NCBI GenBank assembly: GCA_034666665.1
Contig: JAXDLK010000005.1
Location: 1 to 59,036, forward strand
Origin: Candidatus Binatota bacterium
GTDB taxonomy: Bacteria > Desulfobacterota > Binatia > JACPRU01
Length of the DNA stretch: 59,036 bases
Direction of reading: 5' to 3'
The translations under genes were made by a program, and so were the position numbers. This document shows positions 18,262-50,151 of the stretch, one piece after another (the first letter of the stretch is position 1; each line of letters begins with the position of its first letter). The notes below the pieces were generated by a model. It saw only the letters and a program-made list of their open reading frames with translations, was not told the DNA's origin and made no database searches.

Positions 18262-19518
18262 TCAGGACGCAGGCAACTCCGCCGGCGGCGCGGCGGCGAT
18301 CGACGGTGATCCGTCGGCGCGACGTCCGTCGACCCACGTGGTGTCCAGCCAAACCTTGCCGTTCTCGTCCCACGAGATTTCCCGTCCGTGCTGCTTGCCG
18401 TCTCGGTACTCGCGCTCGATCCACGGCCGGCCGTCTTTGCGCCAGAACCTCCACAGCCCGTGCTCGCGTCCGTTGCGCCACTCGCCCTCGCGCTCCTTCC
18501 GGCCGTTCCGGTACCAGGTGATCTCCAGGCCCTCTCGCAGGCCGTGGACGTAGGCGAGCACGAGCTTCTTCTGGCCGTCGTCGTACCACTCGGTCCCTTC
18601 ACCGTCGCGCTGGTCGTGGTCCCAGGTTCCCTCCCAGTGCTTTTGACCGTTCTCGAACCAGGCCACCCAGTGGCCATGCTGCTCGTTGTCGCGCCACTCC
18701 CCTTCCGACTGTTTCGCTCCGTTGTCGTACCAGCGCGTCCACAGGCCTTCTTGCCGGCCATCGCGCCACTCGCCGACGAACTCCTTGCCGCCGTTCTCGT
18801 ACCAGCCGGCCTCCAGCCCGTGGAGCTGGCCGCCGCGGTAATGCTGCACGAGCATCTTGGTTCCGTTCGGGTACCACTCGGTCCAGCCGCCGTCTTTCAC
18901 TCCGCTCCGCCAGTGGCCCTCGAGCTGCTTGTGGCCGTTCGGATGCCACGTGACCTGCAGCCCGGACGGCTGGTCTTCGCGATACTCGACCTCTTCGGCT
19001 TTCTGACCGTCTTCGTGCCACCGGCGCCAGACACCGACCCGCCGACCAGCGTTCCACGAGCCCTGGCTTTGCACCGCGCCGTTCGGGTACCAGCCGATCT
19101 CCGGTCCATCGAGCACGCCATCGCGGAAACGTCGCTCCTGCCGCTTTGCACCGGTCTCGTACCAGTGCATCCACTGGCCTTCCTGCATTCCCTTCTTCCA
19201 GTGGATTTGCTCGCGGACCGTTCCGTCCTCGTACCAGGAGGTCTCATCACCGTCGGGCCGGCCGTACCGATACGAGATCGCGCGCTTGGGCTCTCCGCTC
19301 GGATATCGCGCGAGGTACGGGCCGTGCTTGTACGGCTTGCCGTCGTCGTCGACGGCTTCGCACCACTGCTCGGCGAACTTCGTCACCAAGTGGAGGGTTT
19401 CGAAGCGCCGTTCGGAGACCTTGTGCGTGCCGAAGGGGCAGGCGACGGGCTCGCAGGCCGGCAACGAGGCGGCCACCACCGCCACGAGGGGAAGGAGACG
19501 CAGGGTCGCGGAGCGCAT
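18262..19518 (-). CDS. MORN-repeat-variant (YwqK-like) lipoprotein
   Basis: The signal peptide and lipobox read MRSATLRLLPLVAVVAASLPAC. It has more than 12 tandem repeats of the type G.W..WYENG.K..EG.W..G...G. Confidence 0.8.
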   Translation of the reverse strand: MRSATLRLLPLVAVVAASLPACEPVACPFGTHKVSERRFETLHLVTKFAEQWCEAVDDDGKPYKHGPYLARYPSGEPKRAISYRYGRPDGDETSWYEDGTVREQIHWKKGMQEGQWMHWYETGAKRQERRFRDGVLDGPEIGWYPNGAVQSQGSWNAGRRVGVWRRWHEDGQKAEEVEYREDQPSGLQVTWHPNGHKQLEGHWRSGVKDGGWTEWYPNGTKMLVQHYRGGQLHGLEAGWYENGGKEFVGEWRDGRQEGLWTRWYDNGAKQSEGEWRDNEQHGHWVAWFENGQKHWEGTWDHDQRDGEGTEWYDDGQKKLVLAYVHGLREGLEITWYRNGRKEREGEWRNGREHGLWRFWRKDGRPWIEREYRDGKQHGREISWDENGKVWLDTTWVDGRRADGSPSIAAAPPAELPAS

Positions 19519-19665
19519 CGACTTCGAGTCGAATCTACGGCGTTCACGCCGCTCGGCACAAGAGGACGGGACTGCGCAGGAACGTCGAGACGTGAGCGAC
19601 GCCGCGGTTGTAAATCCGGGAACCTTCCTCTAGAGAAAGAGAGTTCGGAACGACTCACTCTACGC

Positions 19666-20160
19666 ATGCGCCCACTCCTGCGGATTGCGCTCACCGTACT
19701 GCTCCTCGCCGGCGCCCGATGCGCGTCGGCCGCCGACCTCTCGCCGGAGGAGACGCTCAAGCAGTACCTTTCGGGCGTGCAGGATCAGGAGTTCGACAAG
19801 GTCTACGACCTCGTCTCGGCGGGGATGAAACACGACAAGTCGAAGGAAGTCTGGGCGAAGGAGCAGCAGTACATCTTCCAGCTGTCGGAGGCGAAGATCT
19901 TCGACTTCGACGTCTATCCGTCGAAGATCGAGGGAGAGGTCGCCAAGGTCCCGAACATCCTGAGCTCGCAGGACAAGTTCCTGAACCAGCTCGGCGTCGA
20001 GGAGCACGAGCTCTACATACTGGTGAAGGAAGACGGGAAGTGGAAGGTCGACCGCCAAGAGGCGGTGGTCGAGAACGCCGACATCGACAAGTGGTTCCCC
20101 AAGAAGGCCCACGAAGACTCGCCCGCGAAGATCGAGACCAAGCCCCCGGACGCTCCCTGA
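19666..20160 (+). CDS. Secreted hypothetical protein (NTF2/DUF4878-like by eye)
   Basis: Only the last 164 codons of track ORF 18388..20160 look real. The rest is antisense to the MORN gene. ATG 19666 gives MRPLLRIALTVLLLAGARCASA, a signal peptide. The product is Lys/Glu-rich and globular. Confidence 0.65.
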   Translation: MRPLLRIALTVLLLAGARCASAADLSPEETLKQYLSGVQDQEFDKVYDLVSAGMKHDKSKEVWAKEQQYIFQLSEAKIFDFDVYPSKIEGEVAKVPNILSSQDKFLNQLGVEEHELYILVKEDGKWKVDRQEAVVENADIDKWFPKKAHEDSPAKIETKPPDAP

Positions 20161-20499
20161 TCCTGGATCGAGTCGGATGCTCGCGCCGTCGTCGCAAGCA
20201 CCTGTCGCCGAGACCCACATCGCCACCCGACGCTCCGGCTTCGCCAGGTGTGGACGCTGCAGCGGGGAGCAGGAACGACGCCGAGCGGCAGCTCGAGTCC
20301 GACGTCTCGATGCCGAGCCGTCGAGCCTGCCGACTCGCTCTGCCGGGGGCGTTGCTTGCCGGGCCGCCCCGAATGTTCTTGACACGCTCGCGCCGAGTTT
20401 GTTACGGGAGCCGCGATTTCTGTGGCATTTCAGCGCAGGAGGTTTTCCTGCGGGCGAATCGGGACGTATCTGGTCGCGGCCTTCCTCAAGGAGACGCAA

Positions 20500-21558
20500 A
20501 TGTTCCCACGGATGCCGCTCGTTGCGGCCTTGTCGTTGCTCGTTCTCGGCGCCTGCCACCAGGAGTTCGAGAACGTCCCTCTTGCTCAGCAGAAGATCTA
20601 CTTTTCCGACAAGTTCTTCGACGTGAAGGCCATTGGCCCCGATCACGCCGTGATCGTCGGCTACGGTGGCAAGATCCTCGAGACCTCCGACGGCGGGGTC
20701 ACGTTCGAGCGGCGAGAGAGCGGGACCGATCTGGCGCTCTACAAGGTCGCCGCGGTCGGACAGGATCTCTGGGTCTCCGGTCAAGAGGGCACCATCCTTC
20801 ACTCCGGCGACGGCGGGAAGACCTGGCAAAAGCAGCAGGCCGGCACGAACGTGTATCTTTTTTCCATCTTTTTCGTGGACCAGAGCCGCGGCTTCGCGGT
20901 CGGAGACAAATCGGCCTTCCTGCAGACGTCCGACGGCGGCAAGACCTGGCAGGCCGCCAAGATTGCACCCACGTTCGACAACAACGCCGATCCCGATCTC
21001 GCGCTCGCGATGCAGGACCCCGTGCTCTACGACGTTCACTTCCTCGACGCGCAGAATGGCTGGGTCGTCGGTGAGTTCGGCCGCATCTACAAGACCGAGG
21101 ATGGCGGCCAGTCATGGAAAGAGACGCAGAACTCGTTGATGAGCGCCGAAACGGGAATCGTCGACCCGATGGACATTCCCACGTTCTTCGGCATCGACGT
21201 GGTCTCGCCGCAGGAGGCGGTGGTCACGGGGCTCGAGGGCAGGATCGCGCGGACGACGGACGCGGGCGCGACGTGGCGCTTCGACGCGATGGAGCTGCAG
21301 TACCCGATCGTCGACCCACTCTACGAATCGTGGGTCGGCCCCGATGGTACGTCATGGGCGGTCGGCGCCGCGGGGGAGATCGTCTCGCGCGTGTCCGGTG
21401 CGACATCCTGGAAGCGTGCAGATCTCGGGATGCCGATCTACACTTGGATCCGGTCGATCGATTTTTCCGATCCGCAAAACGGCTGGTTGGTCGGCGGCTA
21501 CGGCACCGTGCTGCACACGGCCGACGGCGGCAAGAGCTGGAAGCTCTGCCTCGGTTAG
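20500..21558 (+). CDS. Ycf48-like / BNR-repeat beta-propeller lipoprotein (copy 1)
   Basis: AAGGAG lies 6 nt before ATG 20500. The lipobox is LLVLGAC. It has repeated S/TxDGGxTW sialidase-type motifs (SDGGVTF, GDGGKTW, SDGGKTW, EDGGQSW, TDAGATW, ADGGKSW). Confidence 0.85.
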   Translation: MFPRMPLVAALSLLVLGACHQEFENVPLAQQKIYFSDKFFDVKAIGPDHAVIVGYGGKILETSDGGVTFERRESGTDLALYKVAAVGQDLWVSGQEGTILHSGDGGKTWQKQQAGTNVYLFSIFFVDQSRGFAVGDKSAFLQTSDGGKTWQAAKIAPTFDNNADPDLALAMQDPVLYDVHFLDAQNGWVVGEFGRIYKTEDGGQSWKETQNSLMSAETGIVDPMDIPTFFGIDVVSPQEAVVTGLEGRIARTTDAGATWRFDAMELQYPIVDPLYESWVGPDGTSWAVGAAGEIVSRVSGATSWKRADLGMPIYTWIRSIDFSDPQNGWLVGGYGTVLHTADGGKSWKLCLG

Positions 21559-21654
21559 GAGCCGACGCCATGAGCCGACGATAGGAGCCGACGAGCGGAC
21601 GCGCAGCAGGGGACGGGGATGAGGACGAGGGGCGGCGAAAGGAGGAGGGGAGTC

Positions 21655-23553
21655 ATGGTCGGACGATGTAGCCTCGGGCGGCGTGGGGCGGTCCCTCGGT
21701 CGGGTTGGACGGTCGCGGCCGCATTGCTTCTCGCCTCGATCGTCGCCTCGCCCGCGCACGCGACGGTGCGCTACGGCGACATCCAGATCTCCGGGAACGT
21801 GCAGACGCAGGAGCTGTTCCGGATCCAGGAGCACTCGGACACCTTCAGCGCGTTCAACCCGGTCCAGCAGCGGAACACGTTTCGCCTGCAGTACGAGCAC
21901 CAGCTCGTCAAGGACGGAGGAAACTTCCTCCAAGGGATGGCGCAGCTTCCGTTCATTCGCAGCGCAAACCTCTTCGCCTACTACCGCTTCGTCTACGATT
22001 CGATCTACGACCTCGCGCCCGGGCCGCACCTCGAAGCGCAGGACGGAAGCCACGCGGGCAAGCTCGATCAGATCCCCAGGTCCGCGCGACACGACATCGC
22101 CTTCGAGAACGTGCTCCGCGAGTTCTTCATCGACATCGACCTCGCCCGCGTCCCGGTATCGCTGCGCATCGGCCGGCAACAGATCGTCTGGGGTGAAGCG
22201 CTCTCCTTCCGTGCTCTCGACAGCGTCAACGGCCTCGATCTCTCGTGGCACCTGCAGCAGGAAGCGGGGCTGCTCGGCAAGGTCGGCTTCGACGAGCTGC
22301 GCATCCCCGCGTGGACGATCAAGGCGCTCTGGGACATCGGGTCGGTCGGGCCGGTTTCGAACAGCTACCTCGAGATGTTCGACATCCCATTCGACTTCCA
22401 GCCCGCCTACGCGCGGTTCGAGCCCGCGCCCTGGTCGATCCCGGACCGGAACCCCTTCCGCGGCGGCCTCGTGATCCCGGCGGGACCGGCGTTCCTCCAG
22501 GCCTGCTTCGACGACACCGGGAACACGCAGCCGAACGCGGCGGCAAATCCGGATTTCAGCAATGCCTCCGAGACCGGGTTCTGCCCTTCGAGGGATCGGC
22601 AGCGTACCCGCATCCAGCAGGGTCTCTACGGTCGTCATGATGCCGGGGACGTGAACCAGGTGGGCGGCCGCTTCGGCGGCAACGCCTACGGGGTCGGCTT
22701 CACCTTGAACTACATGTACCGGCGGCATCTGGGTGTCGATCTACCCGGAGCCGGCGCCGTCAAGGCCCAGGTGGGTCTCGTGAACAACGGCCTCCCGGGC
22801 CAGCTCCAGATCGCCCCGCACACCACCCTCGATCCGATCACGCGCGAGGAACACGACACCATCGGCTACGTCCGCATTCCGATCGAGTGGTACTACCCGT
22901 ACGTCCACGTGGTCGGTGCGTCGGCGAACTACTTCGAGGAGTACACGTCAGCCGTGTGGACCGTCGAGGGGGCCCTCACGCACGGCATGCCGATCAATAC
23001 GCTCTCGCCGTTCGGCAACGGCTTGAAGAAGAAGGACGTGCTGCTCGGGGCGCTGAACTTCGATCGCCCCACGTGGATCAAATGGCTCAATCGGCGCTCC
23101 ACCTGGCTGATCATCGGCCAGTTGGATTTCAACTACATCTTCGGCCACGACAAGATCCGCACCGGGCCGAGCCCGTTCGTGCAGGACAACGGTGCGACGA
23201 TCGCTCTGGACGGCGACGTCGGTCTGCCGAACTCCTGCACGATCCCGGGTCAGTTCCGCTCACATTGCGACATCGACGAGCTGAAGCAGTTCGAAGCGCT
23301 GACGATCCTCGCGGCCACCACGTTCTACTGGGGCGGCTCGCTGGCTCCGATCGGGGCATGGATCAGCGACTGGGGGAATGCACCGTCGATGGCGTTCGCG
23401 CTGGGGGTCGATTACCTGCCGTCGCCGAACGTCATCATCACACCGGCGCTTCGCATCTACACGAACTTCAATCGCACGGTGGACGAGCCATGGGGCATCG
23501 GCCGGCTGTCGCAGTGGGACGAAGTCCAGCTGAAGCTCACGTATCAGTTCTGA
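21655..23553 (+). CDS. DUF1302-family outer-membrane protein (copy 1)
   Basis: AAAGGAGGAGG precedes ATG 21655. The signal peptide ends ASPAHA. The motif LRIGRQQIVWGEA is shared with the paralog at 50152..52203. The C-terminus LKLTYQF is typical of an OM barrel. Confidence 0.8.
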   Translation: MVGRCSLGRRGAVPRSGWTVAAALLLASIVASPAHATVRYGDIQISGNVQTQELFRIQEHSDTFSAFNPVQQRNTFRLQYEHQLVKDGGNFLQGMAQLPFIRSANLFAYYRFVYDSIYDLAPGPHLEAQDGSHAGKLDQIPRSARHDIAFENVLREFFIDIDLARVPVSLRIGRQQIVWGEALSFRALDSVNGLDLSWHLQQEAGLLGKVGFDELRIPAWTIKALWDIGSVGPVSNSYLEMFDIPFDFQPAYARFEPAPWSIPDRNPFRGGLVIPAGPAFLQACFDDTGNTQPNAAANPDFSNASETGFCPSRDRQRTRIQQGLYGRHDAGDVNQVGGRFGGNAYGVGFTLNYMYRRHLGVDLPGAGAVKAQVGLVNNGLPGQLQIAPHTTLDPITREEHDTIGYVRIPIEWYYPYVHVVGASANYFEEYTSAVWTVEGALTHGMPINTLSPFGNGLKKKDVLLGALNFDRPTWIKWLNRRSTWLIIGQLDFNYIFGHDKIRTGPSPFVQDNGATIALDGDVGLPNSCTIPGQFRSHCDIDELKQFEALTILAATTFYWGGSLAPIGAWISDWGNAPSMAFALGVDYLPSPNVIITPALRIYTNFNRTVDEPWGIGRLSQWDEVQLKLTYQF

Positions 23554-23567
23554 AGCGACGCGAACGA

Positions 23568-23597
23568 GCGCATGGCCGCAGTCGGGCGGCCATGCGC
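23568..23597 (+). terminator. Perfect 12-bp stem-loop downstream of DUF1302 copy 1 (no U-tract)
   Basis: The stem is GCGCATGGCCGC - agtcgg - GCGGCCATGCGC, starting 15 nt after the stop. A third GCGCATGG copy at 23601-23608 could pair alternatively. Confidence 0.4.
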
Positions 23598-23632
23598 GTC
23601 GCGCATGGGTCGGGTCGAGCCCGCATTCTGCG

Positions 23633-24085
23633 ATGACGCGTCCGCGCTTCGTACCGGCCGGCGAATCGGACGCACCCGAGATCGTCGCCATGATGCGCGA
23701 GCTCTACGAACTCGACGGCTACGGCTACGATGGCGCGCGGGCACTCGAGGCGGTGTGCGCCCTGCTCCGCGATCCCCGCTTCGGGCGCATCTGGCTGATC
23801 CATGCGGAAGAGCCGGAGCCGGTAGGCTACGTCGTCCTGACGCTCGGCTACAGCCTCGAGTTCCACGGCCGTGACGCTTTTCTCGACGAGCTGTACGTCC
23901 GCGAGCCGCATCGCGGCCGAGGCGTCGGCACCGCGGCGATCGCGGTCGTCGAGGAAGCCTGCCGAGAGCTCGGCGTCGGCGCGCTTCACCTCGAGGTGGA
24001 GCGGAGGAACGTCCGTGCCGCGGAGCTCTACCGCCGCCTCGCGTACGTCGACCACGATCGGTTCCTGATGACCAAGCGACTGTGA
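23633..24085 (+). CDS. GNAT family N-acetyltransferase
   Basis: The acetyl-CoA motif A reads LYVREPHRGRGVGTAAI. The product is 150 aa. Confidence 0.85.
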   Translation: MTRPRFVPAGESDAPEIVAMMRELYELDGYGYDGARALEAVCALLRDPRFGRIWLIHAEEPEPVGYVVLTLGYSLEFHGRDAFLDELYVREPHRGRGVGTAAIAVVEEACRELGVGALHLEVERRNVRAAELYRRLAYVDHDRFLMTKRL

Positions 24086-24125
24086 CGGATGGTCTCTGCG
24101 CGGGGGGCCGCCTAGGATCGACGCC

Positions 24126-24920
24126 ATGCAGGAAAATGCGCGCGGCCGGCGCATCCCGGCCCTCTTCGTCGGGCACGGCAACCCGATGAACGCGATCGAG
24201 GACAACGAGGTGTCTCGCTCGTGGCGGCGGCTCGGCGAAACGCTGCCGCGGCCGCGGGCGATCCTCTCGGTCTCGGCCCACTGGTACGTTCCCGGGTGCC
24301 GCGTCACCGTCGATGAACGTCCGCGCACTCTGCACGACTTCGGCGGGTTTCCCCGCCGGCTGCACGAGGTGGAGTACCCCGCGCCCGGCTCCCCGGAGGT
24401 CGCGCGCCGCGTGCGGGAGCTGCTCGCGCCACGGCCGGTGGAGCTCGACGACCGCTGGGGGCTCGACCACGGAACCTGGTCGGTCCTGGTGCATCTCTTT
24501 CCCGGAGCGGACGTTCCGGTCGTTCAGCTCGGGATCGACGAGACCCTACCGCCGGCTGAGCACTGGGAGGTCGCTCGCCGGCTCCGCCCGCTGCGTGAGG
24601 AAGGTGTGCTCGTGCTCGGCTCGGGAAACGTCGTGCACAACCTCCACGCGTATGCCTGGGGCCACCGGTCCGCGGAGCCGTTCGACTGGGCGGCTCGATT
24701 CGAACGCCGGATCCGCGAGTCCATGATCGCGCGGGATCCGCACGCGGTGGTGGGCTACGAAGCGCTCGGTCGAGATGCGGCTCTGGCTGCTCCCACGCCC
24801 GAGCATTTTCTGCCGCTCGTGTACGTCCTCGCACAGAGTGACGCCGGCGAGCCGGTCTCGTTTCCGGTCGAGGGGTTCGACGGCGGCTCGATCTCGATGC
24901 TCGCCGTCCTGTTCGGCTGA
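24126..24920 (+). CDS. ygiD: 4,5-DOPA dioxygenase extradiol (class III extradiol dioxygenase, YgiD-like)
   Basis: Motifs seen: PALFVGHGNPMNA, SAHWY, EYPAPG, LDHGTWSVL, GSGNVVHNL and HFLPLVY. Confidence 0.85.
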   Translation: MQENARGRRIPALFVGHGNPMNAIEDNEVSRSWRRLGETLPRPRAILSVSAHWYVPGCRVTVDERPRTLHDFGGFPRRLHEVEYPAPGSPEVARRVRELLAPRPVELDDRWGLDHGTWSVLVHLFPGADVPVVQLGIDETLPPAEHWEVARRLRPLREEGVLVLGSGNVVHNLHAYAWGHRSAEPFDWAARFERRIRESMIARDPHAVVGYEALGRDAALAAPTPEHFLPLVYVLAQSDAGEPVSFPVEGFDGGSISMLAVLFG

Positions 24921-24949
24921 TGTCGACGAACACTCTCGGCGCGTGAACG

Positions 24950-24983
24950 AAAAAAAAGAGCCGCCGGGACGATTCCCGGCGGC
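24950..24983 (-). terminator. Rho-independent terminator (strong on the minus strand, weak on plus)
   Basis: The minus strand reads GCCGCCGGGA-atcg-TCCCGGCGGC followed by TC-TTTTTTTT. On plus, the hairpin is followed only by CCCCTTTG. It lies between the convergent ygiD-like and DUF1329 genes. Confidence 0.75.
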
Positions 24984-25051
24984 CCCCTTTGCACCACGGA
25001 TCCCCTACGGCACGGACGATTCTGTCAGGTGATCACGACGGTGCGAATCCT

Positions 25052-25092
25052 GCGGAGCGGCGCGCCCCGCGGTTGGGGGTGCGCCGCTCCGC
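25052..25092 (-). terminator. 12-bp GC stem-loop 16 nt after the DUF1329 stop
   Basis: The stem is GCGGAGCGGCGC - 17 nt - GCGCCGCTCCGC. There is no U-tract, so it may be a stabiliser or attenuator rather than a terminator. Confidence 0.35.
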
Positions 25093-25108
25093 GTCGCGCA
25101 GGCTCGAT

Positions 25109-26440
25109 TTAGAAGCCGGCGCTCTTGATCAGGTAGTTGATGGTGAAGTTATCCGGCGTGTTCCACTCCTTCGTGGTGTTGTGGTACCAGTGCTTCACTC
25201 CCAGGTTCGGATAGAGATACCCGTCCGGGCAGTCCCACTTGGAGGTGTGGTTCAGCTGGTGATCGACCACGCCACCGTGGTTCGGGTAGATGTGGTCGTA
25301 GTCGTACGTCGGTGCGTTCGTCGTGCTGGTCGGCACGGTCTTGTAAGCCCCGCCTTCCTTCTTCACGTCGTGCGGGCTCTTGCCCGTGTCCGACATCATG
25401 TACCAGGTCCTCCACAGCTCGCCGCCGTGGTCATAGCCCTCGTTGTACTGGGCCATGTAGGACTCCTTGTCGATGTACAGGATGCGCTTCGAGAACGCGT
25501 ACTGTGAGAACCCGGTCGGCGTTCCCTCGATCACGATCGTGTCACGCACTTCGTGGGGCACGCACCAGATGAAGGCCTTCATGCCGCTCTTGCCATCGGG
25601 CTGGGCGCACCAGGCTTCACGCTGGCCGTAACCGCCCGCGTGGAACGCCGCGAGGAGCTTCTTCTCGCCGAGGAACTTGAACGTCCAGAAGGACAGCTTC
25701 GAGTTCCAAGTCCAGATCGAGTCGATGTCGATGTCCGTGCCCCAGAATGCGTCGGAGCGATTCGCCATCGAGAGACGGCGGACCTTCCGCAGCTCGGGGA
25801 GGTACATGTAGGAGTCGTCCGGAACGTCAGGGGAGACGTAACGGAAGTTGAGCACGCCCGCGCCCTTGAGGTCGTTCGGGTCGTGGAGGGGACCCCACTG
25901 CTCGGTGTAGATGATCGCCGGGTCGTGAGCCACGACCGGCTTCGGGTCCAGGTACAGACGGCCGCGCCACATCATGCGGCGCCAGAAGTTCGAGCCGAAG
26001 AAACGCTCGCGCTCACCGTTCGAGTTCACGAGCTCGACGTTCCAGCCGCAGCCGACGTTGTCGGTGTACGGGGTCTTCTGCTCGTGGTTCCACATCCACT
26101 TGTAGGCCGCGAGCGGATCATTGGGATCCACGTTCGGGAACGGTGCCCCGGCAACGTAGTTCTCCATGTTCCGGCCATCCGCCGACAGCTGAACCTGGGC
26201 CGAGTACTTCTCCGTCGCCTCACGATACTTCGGAGGCCATTCGTACTTGCCGTACTCGATGACCGGGATCTCCATGTCGGCGTTCTTGACGAAGTACGAG
26301 AGGCTCGGGAACAGAACCTCCTGATACTGCGCCATGTTCGCCTTGGTGATGATGGTGCCGGCCTTCGGAATCTCCGCCATCGCCGGCAGGGCGATCGCAA
26401 GCAGGGCCGCGACCGCCATCGAGGTACTAACTCTTCGCAT
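25109..26440 (-). CDS. DUF1329-family (LolA-like) periplasmic/outer-membrane protein
   Basis: The start is set at ATG 26440 after GGAGAAGG. The signal peptide is MRRVSTSMAVAALLAIALPAMA. Motifs typical of DUF1329 are YVAGAPFPN and WMWNHEQK. Confidence 0.8.
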   Translation of the reverse strand: MRRVSTSMAVAALLAIALPAMAEIPKAGTIITKANMAQYQEVLFPSLSYFVKNADMEIPVIEYGKYEWPPKYREATEKYSAQVQLSADGRNMENYVAGAPFPNVDPNDPLAAYKWMWNHEQKTPYTDNVGCGWNVELVNSNGERERFFGSNFWRRMMWRGRLYLDPKPVVAHDPAIIYTEQWGPLHDPNDLKGAGVLNFRYVSPDVPDDSYMYLPELRKVRRLSMANRSDAFWGTDIDIDSIWTWNSKLSFWTFKFLGEKKLLAAFHAGGYGQREAWCAQPDGKSGMKAFIWCVPHEVRDTIVIEGTPTGFSQYAFSKRILYIDKESYMAQYNEGYDHGGELWRTWYMMSDTGKSPHDVKKEGGAYKTVPTSTTNAPTYDYDHIYPNHGGVVDHQLNHTSKWDCPDGYLYPNLGVKHWYHNTTKEWNTPDNFTINYLIKSAGF

Positions 26441-26497
26441 ACCTTCTCCCCTTTCCGCGCCGCTCAGCGGCGCCGCTCTAATGAGCAATTGGTGTAG

Positions 26498-26513
26498 AGC
26501 AACGGCCGTGCCG
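26498..26513 (-). promoter_or_regulatory. Sigma-54 (-24/-12) promoter upstream of the DUF1329 gene
   Basis: The minus strand reads CGGCACGgccgTTGCT against the consensus TGGCACG-N4-TTGCW. The GG-N10-GC spacing is exact. It lies about 58-73 nt upstream of ATG 26440 and directly downstream of an NtrC-type activator gene. Confidence 0.65.
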
Positions 26514-26654
26514 CGTGTCAATCGAACGCCGCCCGGACGGGAAGCCACAACTGCATGAAATCGCAGCTCTTTCTCGAAGTAGTCCCAAAGAGGCGAGTAG
26601 GTAGTTCCACCGGAATTCGGGAATAATTCCGCAGCCCGGAGATTCTCCCCGACC

Positions 26655-28058
26655 TCAATCTCCCGCGTCCATGACCCGCCGGAGGTGCTTGTAGAGCGTC
26701 TTGGGATCGATGCCGAGCATGCGGGAGGCGAGGCTCTTGTTGCCGCCGCAACGCTCGAGCGCCTGCCGGACGTACTCGCTGACCACGTCCTCGAGCCGCC
26801 GGAGCGGCATCGGTTCCGTCGGGCTCTGGCGCGGCGACGGTTTTGACCCGCGGACGCTGGCGGGAAGGTCGGAGAGCTCGACGAGTGGCCCCGGCGCGAG
26901 GATCAACACCGCGGCGACGCAGTTCTTGAGCTCGCGCACGTTCCCCGGCCAGGAATACGAACGGAGTGCCGCCATGGCCTCGGCCGAGAAATCGCGCACG
27001 TGGGTATCCCGAGCAGGGAATGCCGCGGTGAAATGGCGTACCAGCGGCTCGACGTCATCGACGCGTTCACGAAGCGGGGGCAACTCGAGCACCACCGCGC
27101 TCAAGCGATAGAAGAGATCCTCGCGAAAGCGCCCGGTGCTCACCTCCTTGCGAAGGTCCTTGTTCGTCGCTGCCACGACCCGGACGTCCACGTGACTCGT
27201 GCGGTTCTCTCCGACTCGCCGCACCTCGCCCGACTCGAGAGCTCGGAGCACTTTCGCCTGCACCGCGGGGCTCATGTCGCCGATCTCGTCGAGGAAGATC
27301 GTGCCGCCGTCGGCGGCTTCCATGAGGCCGGGGCGCCGCTCGTGCGCACCGGTGAAGGCGCCCCGCTGGTGGCCGAAGAGCTCGCTCTCGAGCAGCGCAT
27401 CGGGGATCGCGCTGCAGTTCAGCACCACCAGCGGCTTCTCCCGACGTCGCGACAGCTCGTGAAGCTCGCGCGCGATGAGCTCCTTGCCGGTGCCGCTCTC
27501 CCCCTGGATGAGGATCGGCGCATCCGCGGGGGCGACGCGCTCCACCTTGCCGAGGACCGCCCTCATTCGGGCGCTCACCGCCACCAGCGCTCCGGTGTCG
27601 CGCCGATCGGCCATCAGCATCTTGAGGGCGGCATTCTCGCGCTCGAGCCGGCGATAGCTGACGGCACGGTTCAGCACCGTCGCCAGCTCGGCGAGCCGGC
27701 ACGGCTTGGTCAGGTAATCGTAGGCGCCGGCCCGCATCGCAGCGACCGCGCTCTCGATCGTGCCGTGGCCGGTCAGCATCACGACCTCGGTGCCGGGGCT
27801 CTCCTGTTTCAGGCGCTGGAGGGTCTCCATGCCGTCCATCGACGGCATCAGCACGTCGACGATCGCGACGGCGAAATCCTCGGCGGCCGCCAGCGCCACG
27901 CCTTCACCGCCCGAGCCGGCGGTCTTCACGTGAAAGCCGAGCCGCGGCAGCTCGCTCGCGAGCATCGTCCGCATCATCTCCTCGTCGTCGACGACGAGGA
28001 CCCACGGCTCGAAGGCCGCGCGGCGCGCCCCGAGCGGGTCCGTCTCAGGCGCGGGCAC
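26655..28058 (-). CDS. Sigma-54-dependent Fis-family response regulator (NtrC-like)
   Basis: It has a REC domain (VLVVDDE...DVLMPSMDG) and an AAA+ domain (GESGTGKE, the GAFTGA loop, FLDEIG). A C-terminal Fis HTH reads GGNKSLASRMLGIDPKTLYKHL. Confidence 0.92.
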   Translation of the reverse strand: MPAPETDPLGARRAAFEPWVLVVDDEEMMRTMLASELPRLGFHVKTAGSGGEGVALAAAEDFAVAIVDVLMPSMDGMETLQRLKQESPGTEVVMLTGHGTIESAVAAMRAGAYDYLTKPCRLAELATVLNRAVSYRRLERENAALKMLMADRRDTGALVAVSARMRAVLGKVERVAPADAPILIQGESGTGKELIARELHELSRRREKPLVVLNCSAIPDALLESELFGHQRGAFTGAHERRPGLMEAADGGTIFLDEIGDMSPAVQAKVLRALESGEVRRVGENRTSHVDVRVVAATNKDLRKEVSTGRFREDLFYRLSAVVLELPPLRERVDDVEPLVRHFTAAFPARDTHVRDFSAEAMAALRSYSWPGNVRELKNCVAAVLILAPGPLVELSDLPASVRGSKPSPRQSPTEPMPLRRLEDVVSEYVRQALERCGGNKSLASRMLGIDPKTLYKHLRRVMDAGD

Positions 28059-29997
28059 GCAGCTTCTCGGCTTCCGCGAGCGCCAGGCGCACGACGAAGA
28101 CGGTTCCGGCGCCCCTCGCCGGATCGTGGAGCTCGAGCTCGCCGCCGTTCTCGCGGACGAGATCGTGGCAGAGCGACAGCCCGAGCCCGGTGCCCTTCTC
28201 GGGGGGCTTGGTCGAGAAGAAGGGCTCGAACACGCGCTCCCGGAGCTCGACCGGAACGCCGGCGCCGTCGTCTTCCACGCGAAGCTCCGCGAAGCCGGCG
28301 ACGGGGAGCGTGCGCACGGTCACCCGCCCTCCTCGGTCGATTGCGTCGAGCCCGTTCAATGTCAGGTTCAGGAGCACCTGCTTCAACTGCTCCGGATCGG
28401 CATCCACCCACAGTGGCTCGCTGGCGACCGCACCCGCAAGATGCTTGCCGCCGATCCGCGAGTGGTTCGCGAGAAGCTCGAGGACCTGTCGCGCGACGTC
28501 GTTCACGTCCATGCGGCGCTTCTGGGGTGATTTGCTGCGGGCGAAGTTGAGGAACTTCTGCACGATCGTCTTCAGCCGGTCGACCTCGTCGACGATCAAT
28601 CGCAGGTGTCCCGGGAAATCGGTGAACGAGGGTTCCGCCGCGAGCCGGGGGTCGGCCGCGCGGTCGAGGAGCCCCTCCGCGAATCCCGAGAGGATGCCGA
28701 GGGGATTGTTGATCTCGTGAGCGACGCCGGCGGCGAGCCGTCCGACCGCGGCCATGCGGTCCTGCCGGATCAGCATCTGCTGCGCGTCGGCGAGCTCTCG
28801 CGTTCGCACCTCGACCTTGCGCTCGAGCTCGTCGTTCCACCGTCGCAGCGTCTCGAGCAGGCGGCGGTTCTCGGCGAGCGCGTCCTCGAGCGCGGAGGTC
28901 CGTTCCCGCACCATCTCCTCGAGGTGGGCCGTCAGCTCGCGAAGCTCGCCGATCCGCTCCTTCAACGATCGGCGCATCGATTCGAACGCGCGCGTCAGCT
29001 CCTCGACTTGCGCGCCGCCGCTCGGCGGCGGCAGCGGCGCGTCGTAGTTCCCCGCCCCGAGCTCGTGGGCAGCCACGGCGAGCTCCGAAAGCGGCCGGGC
29101 GACGGAGCGTGTCAGCAAGAAGCCCGCGGCCAGCGCCGCGAGAAAGACGAACCCGGCCGTCAGCACCAGCCGGCGCTCGAGCGCGCGGAGCGCGAGGGCG
29201 TCGGGCGAGAGCGAGCGCAGGATCGCATACGCTCCGACCGGCTTCGGCCCGATGCCGACGAAAGGCCGGACGACCAGCGCCGGCGCCTTGCCGTGGAGCT
29301 CGACCTCGCCGTACGCCGGACGCACGCCCTCGACGCGCCCTGCGAGATCGGAGATGGCGGCCCGCTCGTGAGGCGAAAGCTCGCGAGAGGAGGCGACGAC
29401 GTCGCTGCCGACGAGGAACGCGATGTCGTTTCCCGACAGCAGCGAGAGCTCGGTGGCGAACCGGCCGTCGACGCGGAATCCCACGCTCAGCGTCCCGGCG
29501 AGGCCGGTCGGCAGCCGCAGCGGCACCGAGACCATCTGGTAGAGCTTGTCTTCGTGGATCCACATGCTGCTCGCGCGCTCGCCGCGGAGCGCCCGAGCGA
29601 CGCTGGTGGTCTCGTCGAAGATGTCGCCGAGCTCCCAGCGGCGGTCCGAGCGGCCGAGGATCACCCCCGAGCGATCCGTGATCAGCACCACCTCGGAGCC
29701 GACGAGACGGTTGATCTCGCGCGAGGCGTACTCCAGGAACGGCGGGTCCCACGTGTGTGCCGGCTCGTGGAGGACCGGCAGCCGGGTTACCAGCGACGCC
29801 GCGGTGATCAGCGCGTTCGCCCGCGTATCGAGCAGCTCGTCGAACACCCGCTGCGCGGTCTCGAGCTCGTCGCGAACCGTTTGCCGCACCTGGTTCGTGA
29901 CGTGCCAATCCACGAGCCACAGCGAGCCGATCAAGGTCGCCGCCACGAGCAGACCGAAGTATCCGAGAATGCGGCCTTGGAAGCCGATCCGGCTCAC
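28045..29997 (-). CDS. Sensor histidine kinase with a large periplasmic sensor domain and HAMP
   Basis: GTG start. It has a TM helix, a ~270-aa periplasmic domain, a second TM helix, HAMP and a coiled coil. The H-box is AAGVAHEINNPL and the HATPase boxes are DDGAGVP and GTGLGLS. It overlaps the RR gene by 14 nt. Confidence 0.88.
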   Translation of the reverse strand: MSRIGFQGRILGYFGLLVAATLIGSLWLVDWHVTNQVRQTVRDELETAQRVFDELLDTRANALITAASLVTRLPVLHEPAHTWDPPFLEYASREINRLVGSEVVLITDRSGVILGRSDRRWELGDIFDETTSVARALRGERASSMWIHEDKLYQMVSVPLRLPTGLAGTLSVGFRVDGRFATELSLLSGNDIAFLVGSDVVASSRELSPHERAAISDLAGRVEGVRPAYGEVELHGKAPALVVRPFVGIGPKPVGAYAILRSLSPDALALRALERRLVLTAGFVFLAALAAGFLLTRSVARPLSELAVAAHELGAGNYDAPLPPPSGGAQVEELTRAFESMRRSLKERIGELRELTAHLEEMVRERTSALEDALAENRRLLETLRRWNDELERKVEVRTRELADAQQMLIRQDRMAAVGRLAAGVAHEINNPLGILSGFAEGLLDRAADPRLAAEPSFTDFPGHLRLIVDEVDRLKTIVQKFLNFARSKSPQKRRMDVNDVARQVLELLANHSRIGGKHLAGAVASEPLWVDADPEQLKQVLLNLTLNGLDAIDRGGRVTVRTLPVAGFAELRVEDDGAGVPVELRERVFEPFFSTKPPEKGTGLGLSLCHDLVRENGGELELHDPARGAGTVFVVRLALAEAEKLRARA

Positions 29998-34534: not shown

Positions 34535-34923
34535 GGGTCCTCCTCGACGACGAGGTCGCCGCCCGCGGAGATGCCCGTCAGTCGCACGCGAGTGCCGATT
34601 CGGAGCGGAGCGTCGGCTTGCCTTGCGGCGTGCGCGAGGATTCTCGGGCCGTCGTCCAGGTCGACGTAGGCCAGGGCGTACGGCGGCGTGCGGCCGGGAA
34701 CCGGGATGCGCACCACGGTGGACGACCAGACCGTTCCGAGCGGTCCGAACAGGTCTCCGGCGACTGCAGCGCCGCAAGCCGGACAGCGCAGGCGCGCGAA
34801 CGCCACCGGCAGGCGACACTCGGTGCAACGCACGCCCTCGATCCGCGAGCTGCCGTCTCCGTGGGCGATCAGCCGCGGGCGCGGGTCGGGAGCATCGCAC
34901 GGTCGTGGGGAGATCCCGGTCAC
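34531..34923 (-). CDS. DUF35 Zn-ribbon/OB-fold protein (thiolase partner)
   Basis: The rubredoxin-like ribbon reads CTECRLPVAFARLRCPACG and is followed by an OB-fold region (YALAYVDLDDGPRILA). The GTG start overlaps the RND stop (GTGA). Confidence 0.8.
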   Translation of the reverse strand: MTGISPRPCDAPDPRPRLIAHGDGSSRIEGVRCTECRLPVAFARLRCPACGAAVAGDLFGPLGTVWSSTVVRIPVPGRTPPYALAYVDLDDGPRILAHAARQADAPLRIGTRVRLTGISAGGDLVVEEDP

Positions 34924-47186: not shown

Positions 47187-49160
47187 ATGAAAACGCGTTC
47201 GGGGCGCAAGTCGAAGGACGACCCTGTCGCGCGACGGAGAGCCGGCAAGCAGAAGCCCGATCTGCAGACGCCGCCTCCGAGAGCGGAGCGCCGGCGTCTG
47301 GAGAAGAAGAGCGGACGGGAAACGTCCGCCTTCGCGGCGCCGCTCCGGCTCGCGCTCGTGCCGCCACTGATCCTGGCGGCACTTTCCCTGCTCCCTCGGG
47401 TCGGCGCGAACCCATGGCTCAGGTCGTCCTTCTGGGGGGCAGCGCTGGCGCTCGTCCTCATGCAAGCGGTTCTCTGGCAGCAAGTGCGCCGCACCGGACG
47501 CACTCTCACCTGCCAGGTGGTTCCGCTGCCGGTGCATTGGGTGCAGGCCAGCATGCAGGCGTGCATCTACGCGTACTGGGGATCGTACTGGCCCGAGGTC
47601 TACCGCCACGTGCCGCTGATCGTGGCGCAGATCGTCCTCGTCTACGGCTTGGACATGCTGGTCTCCTGGTTCCGGCGGGACCAGTGGGTCCTCGGCTTCG
47701 GGCCGTTTCCCATCGTTCTCAGCACGAACCTCTTCATGTGGTTCAAGGACGACTGGTTCTTCCTCCAGTTCCTCATGGTGGCGACCGGAGTGCTCGGCAA
47801 GGAGTTCATCAAGTGGACGCGCGACGGCCGCCGCACGCACATCTTCAATCCGTCGGCGCTGTCGCTGTTCCTCTTCTCGGTGGGTCTGATCGTCACGCAC
47901 TCGACCGACATCACCTGGGGACCGGAGATCGCCGCCACGATCGGTCTTCCCCCGCGGATGTACCTGTGGATCTTCCTGGTCGGTCTGGTGGTCCAGGGGC
48001 TCTTCTCGGTGACGCTGGTCACGCTCTCCGCGGCCGCGACCTTGTTCGCGCTGAACCTCGTCTACACCGGGTCGACGGGGATCTATCACTTCATCATCAC
48101 GAACATCCCGGTGGCGGTCTTCCTCGGGCTCCATCTACTGGTCACCGACCCCGCGACGTCGCCGCGGAGACCATTCGGCAAAGTGCTGTTCGGCGCCGCG
48201 TATGGCGTCAGCGCCTTCGCGCTCTTCGGCCTGCTCGGCCGTGTCGGAATTCCCACCTTCTACGACAAGCTCCTCTGCGTCCCCGTCCTCAACCTGACCG
48301 TCCGGGTGCTCGATCGAATCAGCGACGCGCTCGCGGCACGCTTCCGTGTCCCGATGGTCTTTCCGGAGTGGAGCCCTCGGGCGAGTAACCTCGCGGCCAT
48401 GGCGGTTTGGGCGTCGCTCTTCGTGACCATGTCGGCGAGCGGCTTCCTCGGTCGCGATCACCCCGGACGCGATGCCGAGTTCTGGCGGCGCGCGTGCTCG
48501 GAGGGCCGGCGGAGCGGCTGCGAGACCTGGGTGATGTTCCTCGAAGCCTCCTGCCAGGCGGCGGACGGCGAATCCTGCAAGATGCTCGGGGACCTCAAGC
48601 GGGATGGCCGCGTCGTGCCGGCGAACCGGCTCGAAGCGGGGAAGAGCTTCGGTCGCGCCTGCGACGTGGGGCTCGCGGAAGGATGCGACGAGCTGAAACG
48701 GTTCGCCGACGCCGACGGGCGCGCGGTCTTCGAGAAGTCGTGCGCCGGCGGGGACAGCTACAGCTGCTTCGTCCTCGGCGAGGTGCACGCGCACGGCCTC
48801 GGCGTTTCACAGGACCGTCACGCGGCGATCGAGTTCTTCGAACGATCCTGTGCCGGCGGCTGGCCGCGCGGGTGCGGGCGCCTCGGCGAGGTGTACCTCC
48901 TCGGCGAAGGCACGCCCACGGACGTCGGCAAGGCGGTCGAGAATTTCGAGAAAGCCTGTCGAGGCGGCCACGCGGCGAGCTGCTCCGCCGTGGCCATGGT
49001 GTATCGCCGCGGGATCGGCGGCCTCGGCAACGAGACGCTCGCGGACGAACGTCAGCGGCAAGCGTGTCGCCTCGGGCTTTCCGCCGCGTGCTCGCCAGGA
49101 GACGCTCCCGCGTCCGCCGGGGCGGTGGCGCCAATCGACGTCCTTCGGCTCGGCGGCTAG
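47187..49160 (+). CDS. Polytopic membrane protein (RnfD/NqrB-like motifs) fused to C-terminal Cys-rich Sel1-like repeats
   Basis: The N-terminal tail is highly basic and is followed by ~10 TM helices. Motifs are HIFNPSAL (47844-47855 = FNPS) and LLVTDPATSP (48144-48164). The C-terminal ~225 aa carry six CxxxxxxxC pairs in the pattern A..fF.kAC.gG...gC..LG..Y..G.G, as in Hcp/SLR proteins. Confidence 0.75.
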   Translation: MKTRSGRKSKDDPVARRRAGKQKPDLQTPPPRAERRRLEKKSGRETSAFAAPLRLALVPPLILAALSLLPRVGANPWLRSSFWGAALALVLMQAVLWQQVRRTGRTLTCQVVPLPVHWVQASMQACIYAYWGSYWPEVYRHVPLIVAQIVLVYGLDMLVSWFRRDQWVLGFGPFPIVLSTNLFMWFKDDWFFLQFLMVATGVLGKEFIKWTRDGRRTHIFNPSALSLFLFSVGLIVTHSTDITWGPEIAATIGLPPRMYLWIFLVGLVVQGLFSVTLVTLSAAATLFALNLVYTGSTGIYHFIITNIPVAVFLGLHLLVTDPATSPRRPFGKVLFGAAYGVSAFALFGLLGRVGIPTFYDKLLCVPVLNLTVRVLDRISDALAARFRVPMVFPEWSPRASNLAAMAVWASLFVTMSASGFLGRDHPGRDAEFWRRACSEGRRSGCETWVMFLEASCQAADGESCKMLGDLKRDGRVVPANRLEAGKSFGRACDVGLAEGCDELKRFADADGRAVFEKSCAGGDSYSCFVLGEVHAHGLGVSQDRHAAIEFFERSCAGGWPRGCGRLGEVYLLGEGTPTDVGKAVENFEKACRGGHAASCSAVAMVYRRGIGGLGNETLADERQRQACRLGLSAACSPGDAPASAGAVAPIDVLRLGG

Positions 49161-50144: not shown

Positions 50145-50151
50145 ACTCCGA

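Follow-up and report, generated by a model that had tools for sequence, protein, structure and literature searches.

Four families of envelope proteins, namely DUF1302, DUF1329, the COG4447-type BNR propeller and the COG1033 RND transporter, form a widespread quartet, which is near-universal in Pseudomonas aeruginosa, is also found in SAR11 and in hydrocarbon degraders, and shows strong mutant phenotypes. The association, which the initial annotation of the DNA studied here had named correctly, shows in fitness data from several bacteria, where the four families are cofit (bioRxiv 10.1101/072470). In Shewanella and P. stutzeri, the cofit genes have pleiotropic phenotypes, and outer-membrane vesicles contain the proteins (10.1101/072470). 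In P. putida, the quartet is required for growth on fatty esters and not on free fatty acids, as found in a pooled assay, in which shared functions would not show (10.1101/2020.07.04.188060). AmeABCD of Castellaniella defragrans 65Phen belongs to the same four families: AmeA is the DUF1302 outer-membrane protein, AmeB the LolA-like DUF1329 protein, AmeC the Ycf48-like COG4447 protein and AmeD the HAE3 RND. Its deletion raises Nile Red accumulation and lowers monoterpene tolerance (PMC6394551). The initial annotation also gave a link to growth on fatty acids or alcohols; the link to growth stands, and the phenotypes in the literature are for esters and monoterpenes, not for fatty acids or alcohols as such. 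AlphaFold contacts have been published for DUF1302-DUF1329 and for BNR-RND (PMC10866462), with an ipTM of 0.84 for DUF1302-DUF1329 (PMC13499233). As that annotation stated, the literature offers no established mechanism for the quartet.

Here, a stretch of 59,036 nucleotides from a Candidatus Binatota bacterium (the window) was analysed, and its features are collected in Table 1. It is somewhat probable, in our judgement, that the NTF2-like, BNR1, DUF1302_1 and DUF1329_1 genes (module 1) encode one half, that of the periplasm and outer membrane, of an AmeABCD-type system that handles hydrophobic compounds in the envelope, in a rearranged form and with one extra part.

Table 1. Positions of genes and predicted elements in the window.
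Feature	Position	Strand	Remarks
Promoter-like element TTGTAA-N17-TAGAGA	19608-19636	+	upstream of NTF2-like gene
NTF2-like gene	19666-20160	+	164 aa, secreted, type-I signal peptide ASA/AD; GC3-supported frame
Promoter-like element TTGACA-N18-TACGGG	20379-20408	+	NTF2-BNR gap, ~95 nt before BNR1 start
BNR1, Ycf48-like (COG4447-type) beta-propeller lipoprotein	20500-21558	+	PF14870 PSII_BNR; GC3-supported frame
DUF1302_1 outer-membrane beta-barrel	21655-23553	+	PF06980; GC3-supported frame
Strong stem-loop without T run	23565-23601	+	directly 3' of barrel stop codon
GNAT acetyltransferase	23633-24085	+	Pfam/NCBIfam; between barrel and DUF1329
YgiD-type DOPA 4,5-dioxygenase	24126-24920	+	340 bits, cut-off 233; between barrel and DUF1329
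17-bp G+C-rich hairpin, A run before, T run after	24953-24990		between convergent units; terminator scan and sequence
DUF1329_1, periplasmic LolA-like carrier	25109-26440	-	PF07044 and PF17131; type-I signal peptide; GC3-supported frame
Predicted sigma-54 (-24/-12) promoter CGGCACGGCCGTTGCT	26498-26513	-	58 nt before DUF1329_1 start codon
NtrC/AtoC-like sigma-54 response regulator (RR54)	26655-28058	-	Pfam
dCache_3-HAMP histidine kinase (HK)	28045-29997	-	Pfam
HAE3/MMPL-type RND transporter	34920-37280	-	PF03176 MMPL, TIGR00921 HAE3
YmcC-like (DUF3108-like) lipoprotein, module 2	49296-50144	-	predicted fold
DUF1302_2	50152-52257	-	Pfam
BNR2	52357-53550	-	Pfam

The BNR lipoprotein, the DUF1302 barrel and the DUF1329 protein had first been recognised from the letters of the DNA, and the frames and HMMs confirmed each of them in its place. 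BNR1 matches PF14870 PSII_BNR (E 1.6e-39, 136 bits, cut-off 27), DUF1302_1 matches PF06980 (E 2.8e-18, 66.7 bits, cut-off 23.2), and DUF1329_1 matches both PF07044 (E 3.1e-44, 152 bits, cut-off 23.1) and PF17131 LolA_like (58.5 bits, cut-off 30). BNR1 carries the lipobox L-G-A-C, and DUF1302_1 has a signal peptide ending in AHA and a C-terminal Phe (...YQF); the Shine-Dalgarno sites expected before these two genes are AAGGAG and AAGGAGGAGG, respectively. In the PDB, DUF1329_1 matches only LolA-like proteins (3bk5, 9tp6), and no relative of solved structure was found for DUF1302_1. The closest solved structures to BNR1 are those of Ycf48/HCF136 (8am5, 2xbg). BNR1 is ruled out as Ycf48 proper, because its score for the NCBIfam equivalog NF010237 is 136.5 bits (BNR2, 88 bits), far under the cut-off of 326 bits. 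The RND gene, which had been proposed as the probable partner, is real: it passes PF03176 MMPL (E 3.5e-29), its best model is TIGR00921 HAE3, matched over the full length (E 3e-49) with 167.7 bits against a curated cut-off of 351.9, and it is syntenic with DUF1329 in a close relative. This RND is probably the inner-membrane engine of the system.

The relative in question (G004) is one genome of a different genus in the same family, and it is the only close relative that carries both modules. There, a single block of ~28 kb without interruptions holds both modules together with DUF1329, the RND and the two-component pair. One arm of this contig reads HK3-LuxR-LuxR-BNR2-DUF1302_2-YmcC-like-x40140-SpeE/TPR-RND-HK-RR54-DUF1329_1, and it converges on DUF1302-DUF1302-BNR1-RnfD/Sel1-DUF1302-NTF2. 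RND-HK-RR-DUF1329 is contiguous in this arm, without intervening catabolic genes. In the window, DUF1329_1 likewise closes a long minus-strand series that runs from the RND to the histidine kinase and response regulator, and the RND gene forms a chain with P450, thiolase and mutase genes. The DUF1329_1 orthologue of the relative is 85% identical and occupies the same position, and that of DUF1302_1 (60% identity) is the neighbour of the BNR1 orthologue. The GNAT and DOPA-dioxygenase genes split the set between barrel and DUF1329, as had been noted. They are absent from the syntenic block, which has a further DUF1302 copy in that place. Since the block is uninterrupted, these two genes and the catabolic genes are regarded as local inserts, and the GNAT and DOPA-dioxygenase genes are outside the system. 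The stem-loop after the barrel gene (RNA fold -37.9 kcal/mol, z -2.98, 0/200 shuffles as stable) is likely the end of the BNR1-DUF1302 transcript, and the hairpin between the convergent units is a probable two-way terminator. The co-occurrence profiling that had been suggested was carried out on 41 genomes: each of the 31 genomes with DUF1302 and each of the 30 with DUF1329 also has BNR and RND, so that DUF1302 and DUF1329 are found only together with BNR and RND, and all four families are missing from four genomes. Co-occurrence and synteny support the quartet as one system. On the other side, BNR1 and DUF1302 are adjacent only in the window and this relative; in the five other family members that have a DUF1329_1 orthologue, the DUF1302_1 query finds weak matches only (E 1e-11 to 1e-21), and within 10 kb of the four orthologues with fetched loci (L020-L023) lies no homologue of DUF1302 or RR54.

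The extra part is the NTF2-like protein. No family passes in a Pfam search with it, and NCBIfam gives a weak match to the NTF2-like N-terminus of MecA. Its AlphaFold model (pLDDT 84.7) has three to four helices and then five strands, in the cone-shaped alpha+beta arrangement of helices followed by a curved antiparallel sheet. Foldseek matches it with probability 1.0 to the NTF2 domains of PBP2a, RsgI9, 3k7c and KSI-like proteins (TM 0.4-0.65). Signal peptide and fold thus agree with the secreted NTF2-like protein of the initial annotation. Lipid-bound Ttg2D/MlaC (5uwb) appears at rank 45 as a weak fold match. A simple lipid pocket is a poor fit, because several invariant residues are polar or acidic (E113, E115, Y117, E122, D103). 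The family has at least 498 homologues, several of them named Candidatus Binatia, and no lipoproteins were found among its members.

BNR is the next gene after the NTF2-like gene in 16 of 20 related genomes and at 49 of 54 metagenome loci, and NTF2-BNR-RND is contiguous in 7 genomes and at 10 of the 19 loci with room. The conserved core is NTF2-BNR, often followed by RND. In most relatives, the pair stands alone or before an RND or a YmcC-like lipoprotein gene; ABC-transporter genes accompany the latter at L028, the one such locus with genes listed. The gap between NTF2 and BNR contains TTGAC[AT] in 59 of 61 cases, with TA ~18 nt downstream in at least 70% of the 57 distinct gap sequences, and perfect TTGACA in 32 of 61, against ~0.7 expected in 8.6 kb as estimated from base composition. 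In the relative, the TTGACA-type element remains with BNR1 although NTF2 is 4 kb distant. The element upstream of the NTF2-like gene is also found at -52 to -65 in its closest metagenome homologues, and sigma-54 elements show no enrichment ahead of NTF2-like genes. The NTF2-fold protein is proposed to be a conserved fifth, periplasmic component of the quartet system. Tentatively, NTF2 and the BNR propeller may be a conserved and separately promoted periplasmic adaptor pair, which in Binatia could work with more than one kind of engine, an HAE3 RND or probably a GldG-type ABC transporter, and with either DUF1302 barrels or YmcC-like lipoproteins as outer partners. In that case, the NTF2-fold protein would be a soluble cargo carrier or a cargo-modifying enzyme, and the whole a five-part modular platform for lipid or hydrophobe trafficking, not the four-part pump described so far.

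DUF1329 appears to be controlled separately. The element CGGCACGGCCGTTGCT has one mismatch to TGGCAC-N5-TTGCW, and at most one mismatch is reached in 0.5% of random 320-nt stretches. All six DUF1329_1 clade members examined have GG-N10-GC at -73 to -99. Judged by sequence, DUF1329_1 has its own predicted and conserved sigma-54 promoter beside an NtrC-type regulator. The regulator and kinase, whose best NCBIfam matches are AtoC/AtoS, under cut-off, are proposed as the inducer of DUF1329.

The set had also been described as duplicated at 49296-53466. A second module does exist, at 49296-53550; its sequence marks it as an apparently ancient paralogue of module 1 (BNR2 38%, DUF1302_2 30% identity), and it contains a YmcC-like lipoprotein and no DUF1329. 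The model of this lipoprotein (pLDDT 83.2) matches the YmcC-like folds 4fvs, 3fzx and 2in5 (E 4e-8) and weakly resembles EPDR1, RseB and LprG (TM <=0.35). In the relative, the orthologues of module 2 keep the same order, and the RND could work for module 2 just as well as for module 1, because there it lies between module 2 and the regulator. The source genome has ~8 barrels and 6-7 LolA-like genes versus 3 BNR genes and ~3 such pumps, and DUF1302 and DUF1329 paralogues are located near P450 or thiolase genes.

In the proposed working, the proton gradient would drive the RND pump at the inner membrane, and the BNR lipoprotein would dock on its periplasmic loops. Cargo would be carried through the periplasm by two soluble carriers, the LolA-like DUF1329 protein and the small NTF2-fold protein, and the DUF1302 barrel would be the outer-membrane gate. 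NTF2 and BNR1-DUF1302 would each have a TTGACA-type promoter, and the nearby sensor kinase and NtrC-type regulator would turn on DUF1329 via the sigma-54 promoter. In an inward role, bulky hydrophobic growth substrates would be passed to catabolic enzymes. We lean towards this direction, at somewhat under even chances, then towards efflux, and least towards export of the cell's own envelope lipid. Barrels and carriers outnumber pumps, and many gates per engine would be the pattern of an uptake system; the paralogues near P450 and thiolase genes and the ester-specific growth failure of P. putida also count for the inward direction.

The same machine may instead run outward, which we regard as possible and rather doubtful. 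It would be an inducible efflux or tolerance system, expelling toxic hydrophobic substrates or intermediates out of inner membrane and periplasm via the DUF1302 barrel, as has been proposed for AmeABCD. To our knowledge, all characterised bacterial RND relatives are exporters, and the nearest solved relatives of this RND are the exporters MmpL3/4/5 and HpnN. This and the AmeABCD deletion phenotype count for the outward direction, and the substrates of the P450, thiolase and mutase genes chained to the RND could be toxic. However, efflux usually employs one outer-membrane channel for many pumps, the reverse of the ratio seen here, and the P. putida phenotype is specific to ester growth, not to general tolerance.

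It is improbable that the machine exports an envelope lipid or lipid-linked component of the cell itself to the outer membrane, like HpnN (hopanoids) or Lol (lipoproteins), as Price et al. originally proposed. The pleiotropic phenotypes of Shewanella and P. stutzeri, the proteins in outer-membrane vesicles, the LolA-like and YmcC-like carrier folds, and the consensus -35 box of the BNR gene, which suggests steady expression, would suit such a role. But a housekeeping exporter is not expected as 6-8 diverged paralogues beside P450 and thiolase genes, nor with one carrier under a sensor-kinase/sigma-54 switch, nor to be missing from the four genomes without any of the families.

Least probable of all is that NTF2-BNR1 is an independent pair and that barrel, DUF1329 and RND became its neighbours only by lineage-specific rearrangement. 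For this reading, a barrel follows BNR only in two genera, outside them the DUF1329_1 orthologues are orphans, NTF2-BNR in most relatives is alone or has an RND or YmcC-like lipoprotein gene after it, and the window has several local insertions. Against it, the same neighbours persist over ~28 kb in the relative despite rearrangements, none of the 41 genomes has a barrel or LolA-like gene and lacks BNR or RND, and the four families are cofit (10.1101/072470).

If module 1 is half of an AmeABCD-type system, its fifth, strictly linked small soluble protein would be easily purified and testable for ligand binding. The split into independently regulated units shows which pairs hold through evolution: BNR remains linked to NTF2, and in many cases to RND, and the barrel and LolA-like protein are movable. 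The gate-to-engine ratio points to substrate-specific entry. Binatia are proposed oxidisers of alkanes and methyl compounds, and the system would give them the route that has been missing for hydrophobic substrates; a published Binatota genome survey mentions neither RND nor any transporters.

Like AmeABCD, the system in the window is associated with a catabolic island whose substrates are hydrophobic. Whereas AmeABCD is one four-gene cluster, the quartet genes here are spread within 18 kb over at least three transcription units on two strands and do not form one operon. The putatively sigma-54-controlled DUF1329, the added NTF2-fold protein and the host, which belongs to Binatia and is not a proteobacterium, are further differences. 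The cofit genes of Shewanella, Kangiella and Pseudomonas (P. putida PP_0765/0766 and PP_2018/2019) belong to the same families, and Pseudomonas has a two-locus split as in the window. A LuxR-type regulator stands beside the DUF1302 module in those systems and beside module 2 here. The Pseudomonas pairs are barrel with LolA-like protein and BNR with RND; in the window, BNR is with the barrel and DUF1329 is alone behind the two-component system. Moreover, the barrel and LolA-like paralogue families are large in the source genome compared with Pseudomonas (8 and 7 matches). BNR1 shares the propeller family PF14870 and the lipoprotein nature with Ycf48/HCF136, a photosystem II assembly factor, but its gene context is an envelope transporter instead of photosynthesis. 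As in MlaC/Ttg2D and NPC2-NPC1, the gene for a small exported cone-fold protein neighbours that of an RND-superfamily or ABC transporter. The NTF2-like protein may resemble these in the logic by which a small soluble carrier hands lipid over to a transporter in the membrane; the sequences are unrelated, and its putative pocket residues are partly polar.

The source genome is metagenome-assembled (3.63 Mb in 387 contigs, 84% complete, 67.5% G+C), and coding frames were set by third-position G+C frame plots. These frames, together with Pfam and NCBIfam matches, agree throughout with the coordinates and family guesses of the initial annotation. An NCBIfam search gave no names for the DUF1302 and DUF1329 proteins or for the YmcC-like lipoprotein of the second module, and it ruled out that BNR1, the propeller lipoprotein of the first module, is Ycf48 proper. 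An Rfam search for known RNA elements in 19400-26800 returned one chance-level match and nothing else.

Coordinates and properties of the features discussed in the text
Feature	Position	Strand	Properties
NTF2-like	19666-20160	+	164 aa; type-I signal peptide ...ASA/ADLSPEE
Non-coding gap, NTF2-like to BNR1	20161-20499		339 nt
TTGACA-type element before BNR1	20379-20408	+	
Ycf48-like BNR lipoprotein (BNR1)	20500-21558	+	PF14870, E 1.6e-39; lipobox LGAC; SD AAGGAG
DUF1302 protein	21655-23553	+	PF06980, E 2.8e-18, 66.7 bits (cut-off 23.2); signal peptide ...AHA/TV; C-terminal residues YQF; SD site AAGGAGGAGG
GNAT gene	23633-24085	+	
YgiD-type DOPA 4,5-dioxygenase gene	24126-24920	+	
17-bp hairpin	24953-24990		between the convergent units
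DUF1329	25109-26440	-	PF07044, E 3.1e-44; also LolA_like
Sigma-54 element before DUF1329	26513-26498	-	CGGCACGGCCGTTGCT; one mismatch from consensus
Inverted repeat	26612-26630		GGAATT-N7-AATTCC
Series ending in DUF1329	37280 down to 25109	-	HAE3/MMPL RND, DUF35, SCP-x thiolase, P450, B12 mutase (two subunits), dCache_3-HAMP histidine kinase, NtrC-type sigma-54 response regulator, DUF1329
P450	32199-33419	-	
RND	34920-37280	-	786 aa
RnfD/Sel1 fusion gene	47187-49160		
Module-2 lipoprotein	49296-50144	-	third gene of module 2
Region upstream of BNR2	53440-53790	-	TTGACC-N18-TACCTG

In a survey of 41 related genomes, a homologue of the NTF2-like protein was found in 20 besides the window's own. 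In 16 of these 20, it is the gene directly 5' of the best BNR1 homologue and shares its strand, and the matched NTF2 and BNR stretches are 21-215 nt apart there. The two genes are on separate contigs in 3 of the 20, and in the closest relative with orthologues (G004, same family but another genus) they stand 4 kb apart inside the cluster. The pair also occurs on four long public contigs. Via NTF2 alignment, 80 metagenome loci were fetched, and 54 of them extend 500 nt or more past the NTF2 gene; the BNR gene starts no more than 400 nt past NTF2 in 49 of the 54, and no more than 470 nt past it in 52. At the 19 loci with at least 2.5 kb downstream, the gene after BNR is RND (10), a YmcC-like (DUF3108-like) lipoprotein (7) or another gene (2), and NTF2-BNR-RND is contiguous in seven sampled genomes. 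Among all sampled genomes and loci, a DUF1302 gene directly follows BNR1 only in the window and in G004. Thus, NTF2 and BNR (with RND) are the stable evolutionary unit, and the barrel was attached in the window/G004 lineage.

A second conserved architecture, NTF2-like, BNR and YmcC-like lipoprotein, was seen at the fetched loci L028 (10001-16011), L061, L064, L070, L077, L080, L097 and L098. L028 is the one such locus with Pfam-listed genes, and a GldG-type ABC set (ABC_tran, ABC2_membrane, ABC_transp_aux/DUF7088, DUF4340) lies 3' of its lipoprotein. The RND proteins that follow BNR in other families (e.g., G020:C18:689871-692450, L041 and L087) have about 890-900 aa, longer than that of the window. 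They align to the window RND in two pieces with a break near residue 205, which points to an inserted domain absent from the window protein.

In G004, the whole gene set is on one contig. Its plus strand carries HK3, LuxR, LuxR, BNR2, DUF1302_2, the YmcC-like lipoprotein, x40140, a SpeE/TPR membrane protein, RND, a histidine kinase, the NtrC-type regulator and DUF1329_1 (85% identical to its window orthologue), and the converging opposite strand carries NTF2-like, DUF1302, RnfD/Sel1, BNR1 (63% identity, tblastn), DUF1302 (60% for this one after BNR1) and DUF1302. The block is without GNAT, DOPA dioxygenase, DUF35/thiolase/P450/mutase and the ExbBD-VWA cluster, and in the window these genes were inserted locally into what was an ancestral super-cluster. 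Because of this block, the GNAT and dioxygenase genes can be said merely to split the set, as had been proposed, and the window RND, proposed as partner of module 1, does belong with the gene set. It is not assignable to module 1 alone, since the RND of G004 stands between module 2 and the regulator. The NTF2-BNR1 gap of the window is longer than the roughly 20-215 nt that separate the matched stretches of relatives. This position is occupied in G004 by the RnfD/Sel1 fusion gene together with a paralogue of DUF1302 (L014, G004:C9 6245-10190); in the window, the fusion gene is 27 kb off, beside module 2. The enlarged gap looks like a rearrangement scar.

Module 2 had been read as a duplicate of the set within the same window. 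BNR2 and DUF1302_2 are only 38% and 30% identical to their module-1 counterparts, and BNR1, BNR2, DUF1302_1 and DUF1302_2 each have their own 58-63% orthologue in G004, which rules out recent duplication. The third gene encodes a lipoprotein modelled with pLDDT 83.2; its predicted fold is YmcC-like (4fvs, 3fzx, 2in5) and only weakly like that of LolA-class lipid binders. Module 2 is therefore an ancient paralogue with a different third partner. Other family members have an RND paralogue 3' of the BNR2-type gene. A homologue 59% identical to the lipoprotein bears the NCBI name "TapB family protein"; neither protein matches any of the NCBIfam models searched, and a literature search for TapB/DUF3108 gave unrelated papers only.

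Across the 41 genomes, which are related and hence non-independent and were queried with differing thresholds, so that the counts are descriptive, matches were found in 31 for DUF1302, 30 for DUF1329, 36 for BNR and 37 for RND. All genomes with a barrel or LolA-like gene also have BNR and RND, four have BNR and RND without DUF1302 and DUF1329, and four lack all four families. This nesting is consistent with outer parts, barrel and LolA-like protein, that depend on a BNR-RND engine. The window's genome has 8 DUF1302 and 7 DUF1329 HMM matches, against 3 BNR genes and about 3 HAE3-like pumps. Several DUF1329 and DUF1302 paralogues, in this genome and in relatives, are near P450 or thiolase genes. 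Paralogues 1-6 kb from cytochrome P450 genes are found on contigs C97, C362 and C189 of the genome and at loci L020 and L021, whose P450s are 61% identical to that of the window.

The two convergent units differ in their predicted promoters. A TTGAC[AT] hexamer is present in 59 of 61 NTF2-BNR gaps, and a TA about 18 nt past it belongs to the 70% consensus, being found in at least 70% of 57 distinct gap sequences. Perfect TTGACA occurs in 32 of the 61 gaps (8.6 kb in total), where about 0.7 would be expected by an estimate from base composition. In G004, the element is kept with BNR1 though NTF2 has moved away. A simple sigma-70 scan of the region gave no match; the -10 box of the TTGACA-N18-TA elements is non-canonical, and they were found only via locus comparison. 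Housekeeping promoters in this group probably take the TTGACA-N17/18-TA form as a rule, and BNR and barrel have a predicted promoter of this type. The same type was seen upstream of BNR2 and, in G004, ahead of both BNR1 and the DUF1302 gene after NTF2. NTF2 has its own element, TTGTAA-N17-TAGAGA, common to its closest homologues. A stem-loop of -37.9 kcal/mol at 23565-23601 lies 3' of the barrel stop codon and is predicted to end the BNR1-DUF1302 unit. Each of the six DUF1329_1 clade members examined has a GG-N10-GC element at -73 to -99, and no more than one mismatch to the sigma-54 consensus occurs in 0.5% of random 320-nt stretches. The DUF1329 transcript of the window is predicted to begin about 12 nt past 26498. 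The best NCBIfam matches of the adjacent kinase and regulator are AtoS/AtoC, below cut-off. From the conserved element, the LolA-like carrier DUF1329 is probably induced by this kinase and NtrC-type regulator. A sigma-54 regulator is often divergent and upstream of NTF2-like genes, accompanied by a kinase in the second architecture, yet no sigma-54 promoter is detectable there: at 34 loci, the best matches before NTF2-like genes, BNR1 or DUF1302 follow the mismatch distribution of random stretches. The inverted repeat, considered as a candidate enhancer site, occurs once in the window and is not conserved as a repeat in the intergenic region of G004.

Since Pfam gave no match for the NTF2-like protein, homologues were collected (at least 498), several bearing the NCBI name "Candidatus Binatia bacterium" and some JGI labels such as DUF4878, ketosteroid-isomerase-like and limonene-epoxide-hydrolase. 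The family has type-I signal peptides and is not lipoproteins. The predicted structure (pLDDT 84.7, pTM 0.74) matches NTF2-fold domains in the PDB with Foldseek probability 1.0, including the PBP2a N-terminal domain, RsgI9 NTF2, the NTF2-like protein 3k7c, CaMKII hubs and KSI-like proteins, with lipid-bound Ttg2D/MlaC (5uwb) at rank 45. With a consistent weak NCBIfam match to the MecA N-terminus, the proposed secreted NTF2 fold holds. In an alignment of 43 homologues, E113-E115-Y117-L119 on one strand face, D103, E122 and W126 are among the invariant residues, so that the pocket may be partly polar. The best-conserved stretch, residues 96-126, is polar (PNILSSQDKFLNQLGVEE, then the E-x-E-x-Y-x-L strand). 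This speaks less for a plain lipid cavity than for a contact surface with another protein, or for a pocket that is catalytic or binds a polar ligand.

The noted pairing of DUF1302/DUF1329 with BNR and COG1033 RND proteins is borne out by the literature. Cofitness of DUF1302, DUF1329, COG4447 BNR and COG1033 RND is known in Shewanella, Kangiella and Pseudomonas, and export of an envelope component was proposed (Price et al., 10.1101/072470). In P. putida, PP_0765/0766 and PP_2018/2019 are needed specifically on Tween 20 and butyl stearate and are dispensable on laurate and myristate (Thompson et al., 10.1101/2020.07.04.188060). AlphaFold contacts were reported between barrel and LolA-like protein and between BNR and RND (Foldy, PMC10866462), and an 18-strand barrel was predicted with ipTM 0.84 with DUF1329, no DUF1302 structure being solved (ECLIPSE, PMC13499233); our PDB search likewise found no solved relative. 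In Castellaniella, mutants deleted for the four, AmeABCD, tolerate monoterpenes less well and accumulate more Nile Red (PMC6394551). The literature search found no later mechanistic paper on the quartet.

Family membership, localisation signals, synteny and regulatory motifs come from our analysis; contacts of the components and cargo hand-over are what we infer from published predictions and analogy. RND and the BNR propeller would act at the inner membrane and the DUF1302 barrel in the outer one, with two soluble proteins, LolA-like and NTF2-fold, in the periplasm between them; the LolA-like carrier would be inducible. We lean towards inward transport because there are many gates per engine, because paralogues adjoin catabolic genes and because P. 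putida shows an ester-specific, cell-autonomous phenotype. The same machine may instead run outward, as do all solved RND relatives, which are exporters, and the AmeABCD deletion data also speak for this direction.

The locus is of value mainly for its tightly linked NTF2-fold partner and for showing which parts stay together in evolution, both of which facilitate tests of the family's mechanism. Systems of this kind are already known, and, with moderate confidence, we regard the locus as a five-part variant of the four-family AmeABCD type.
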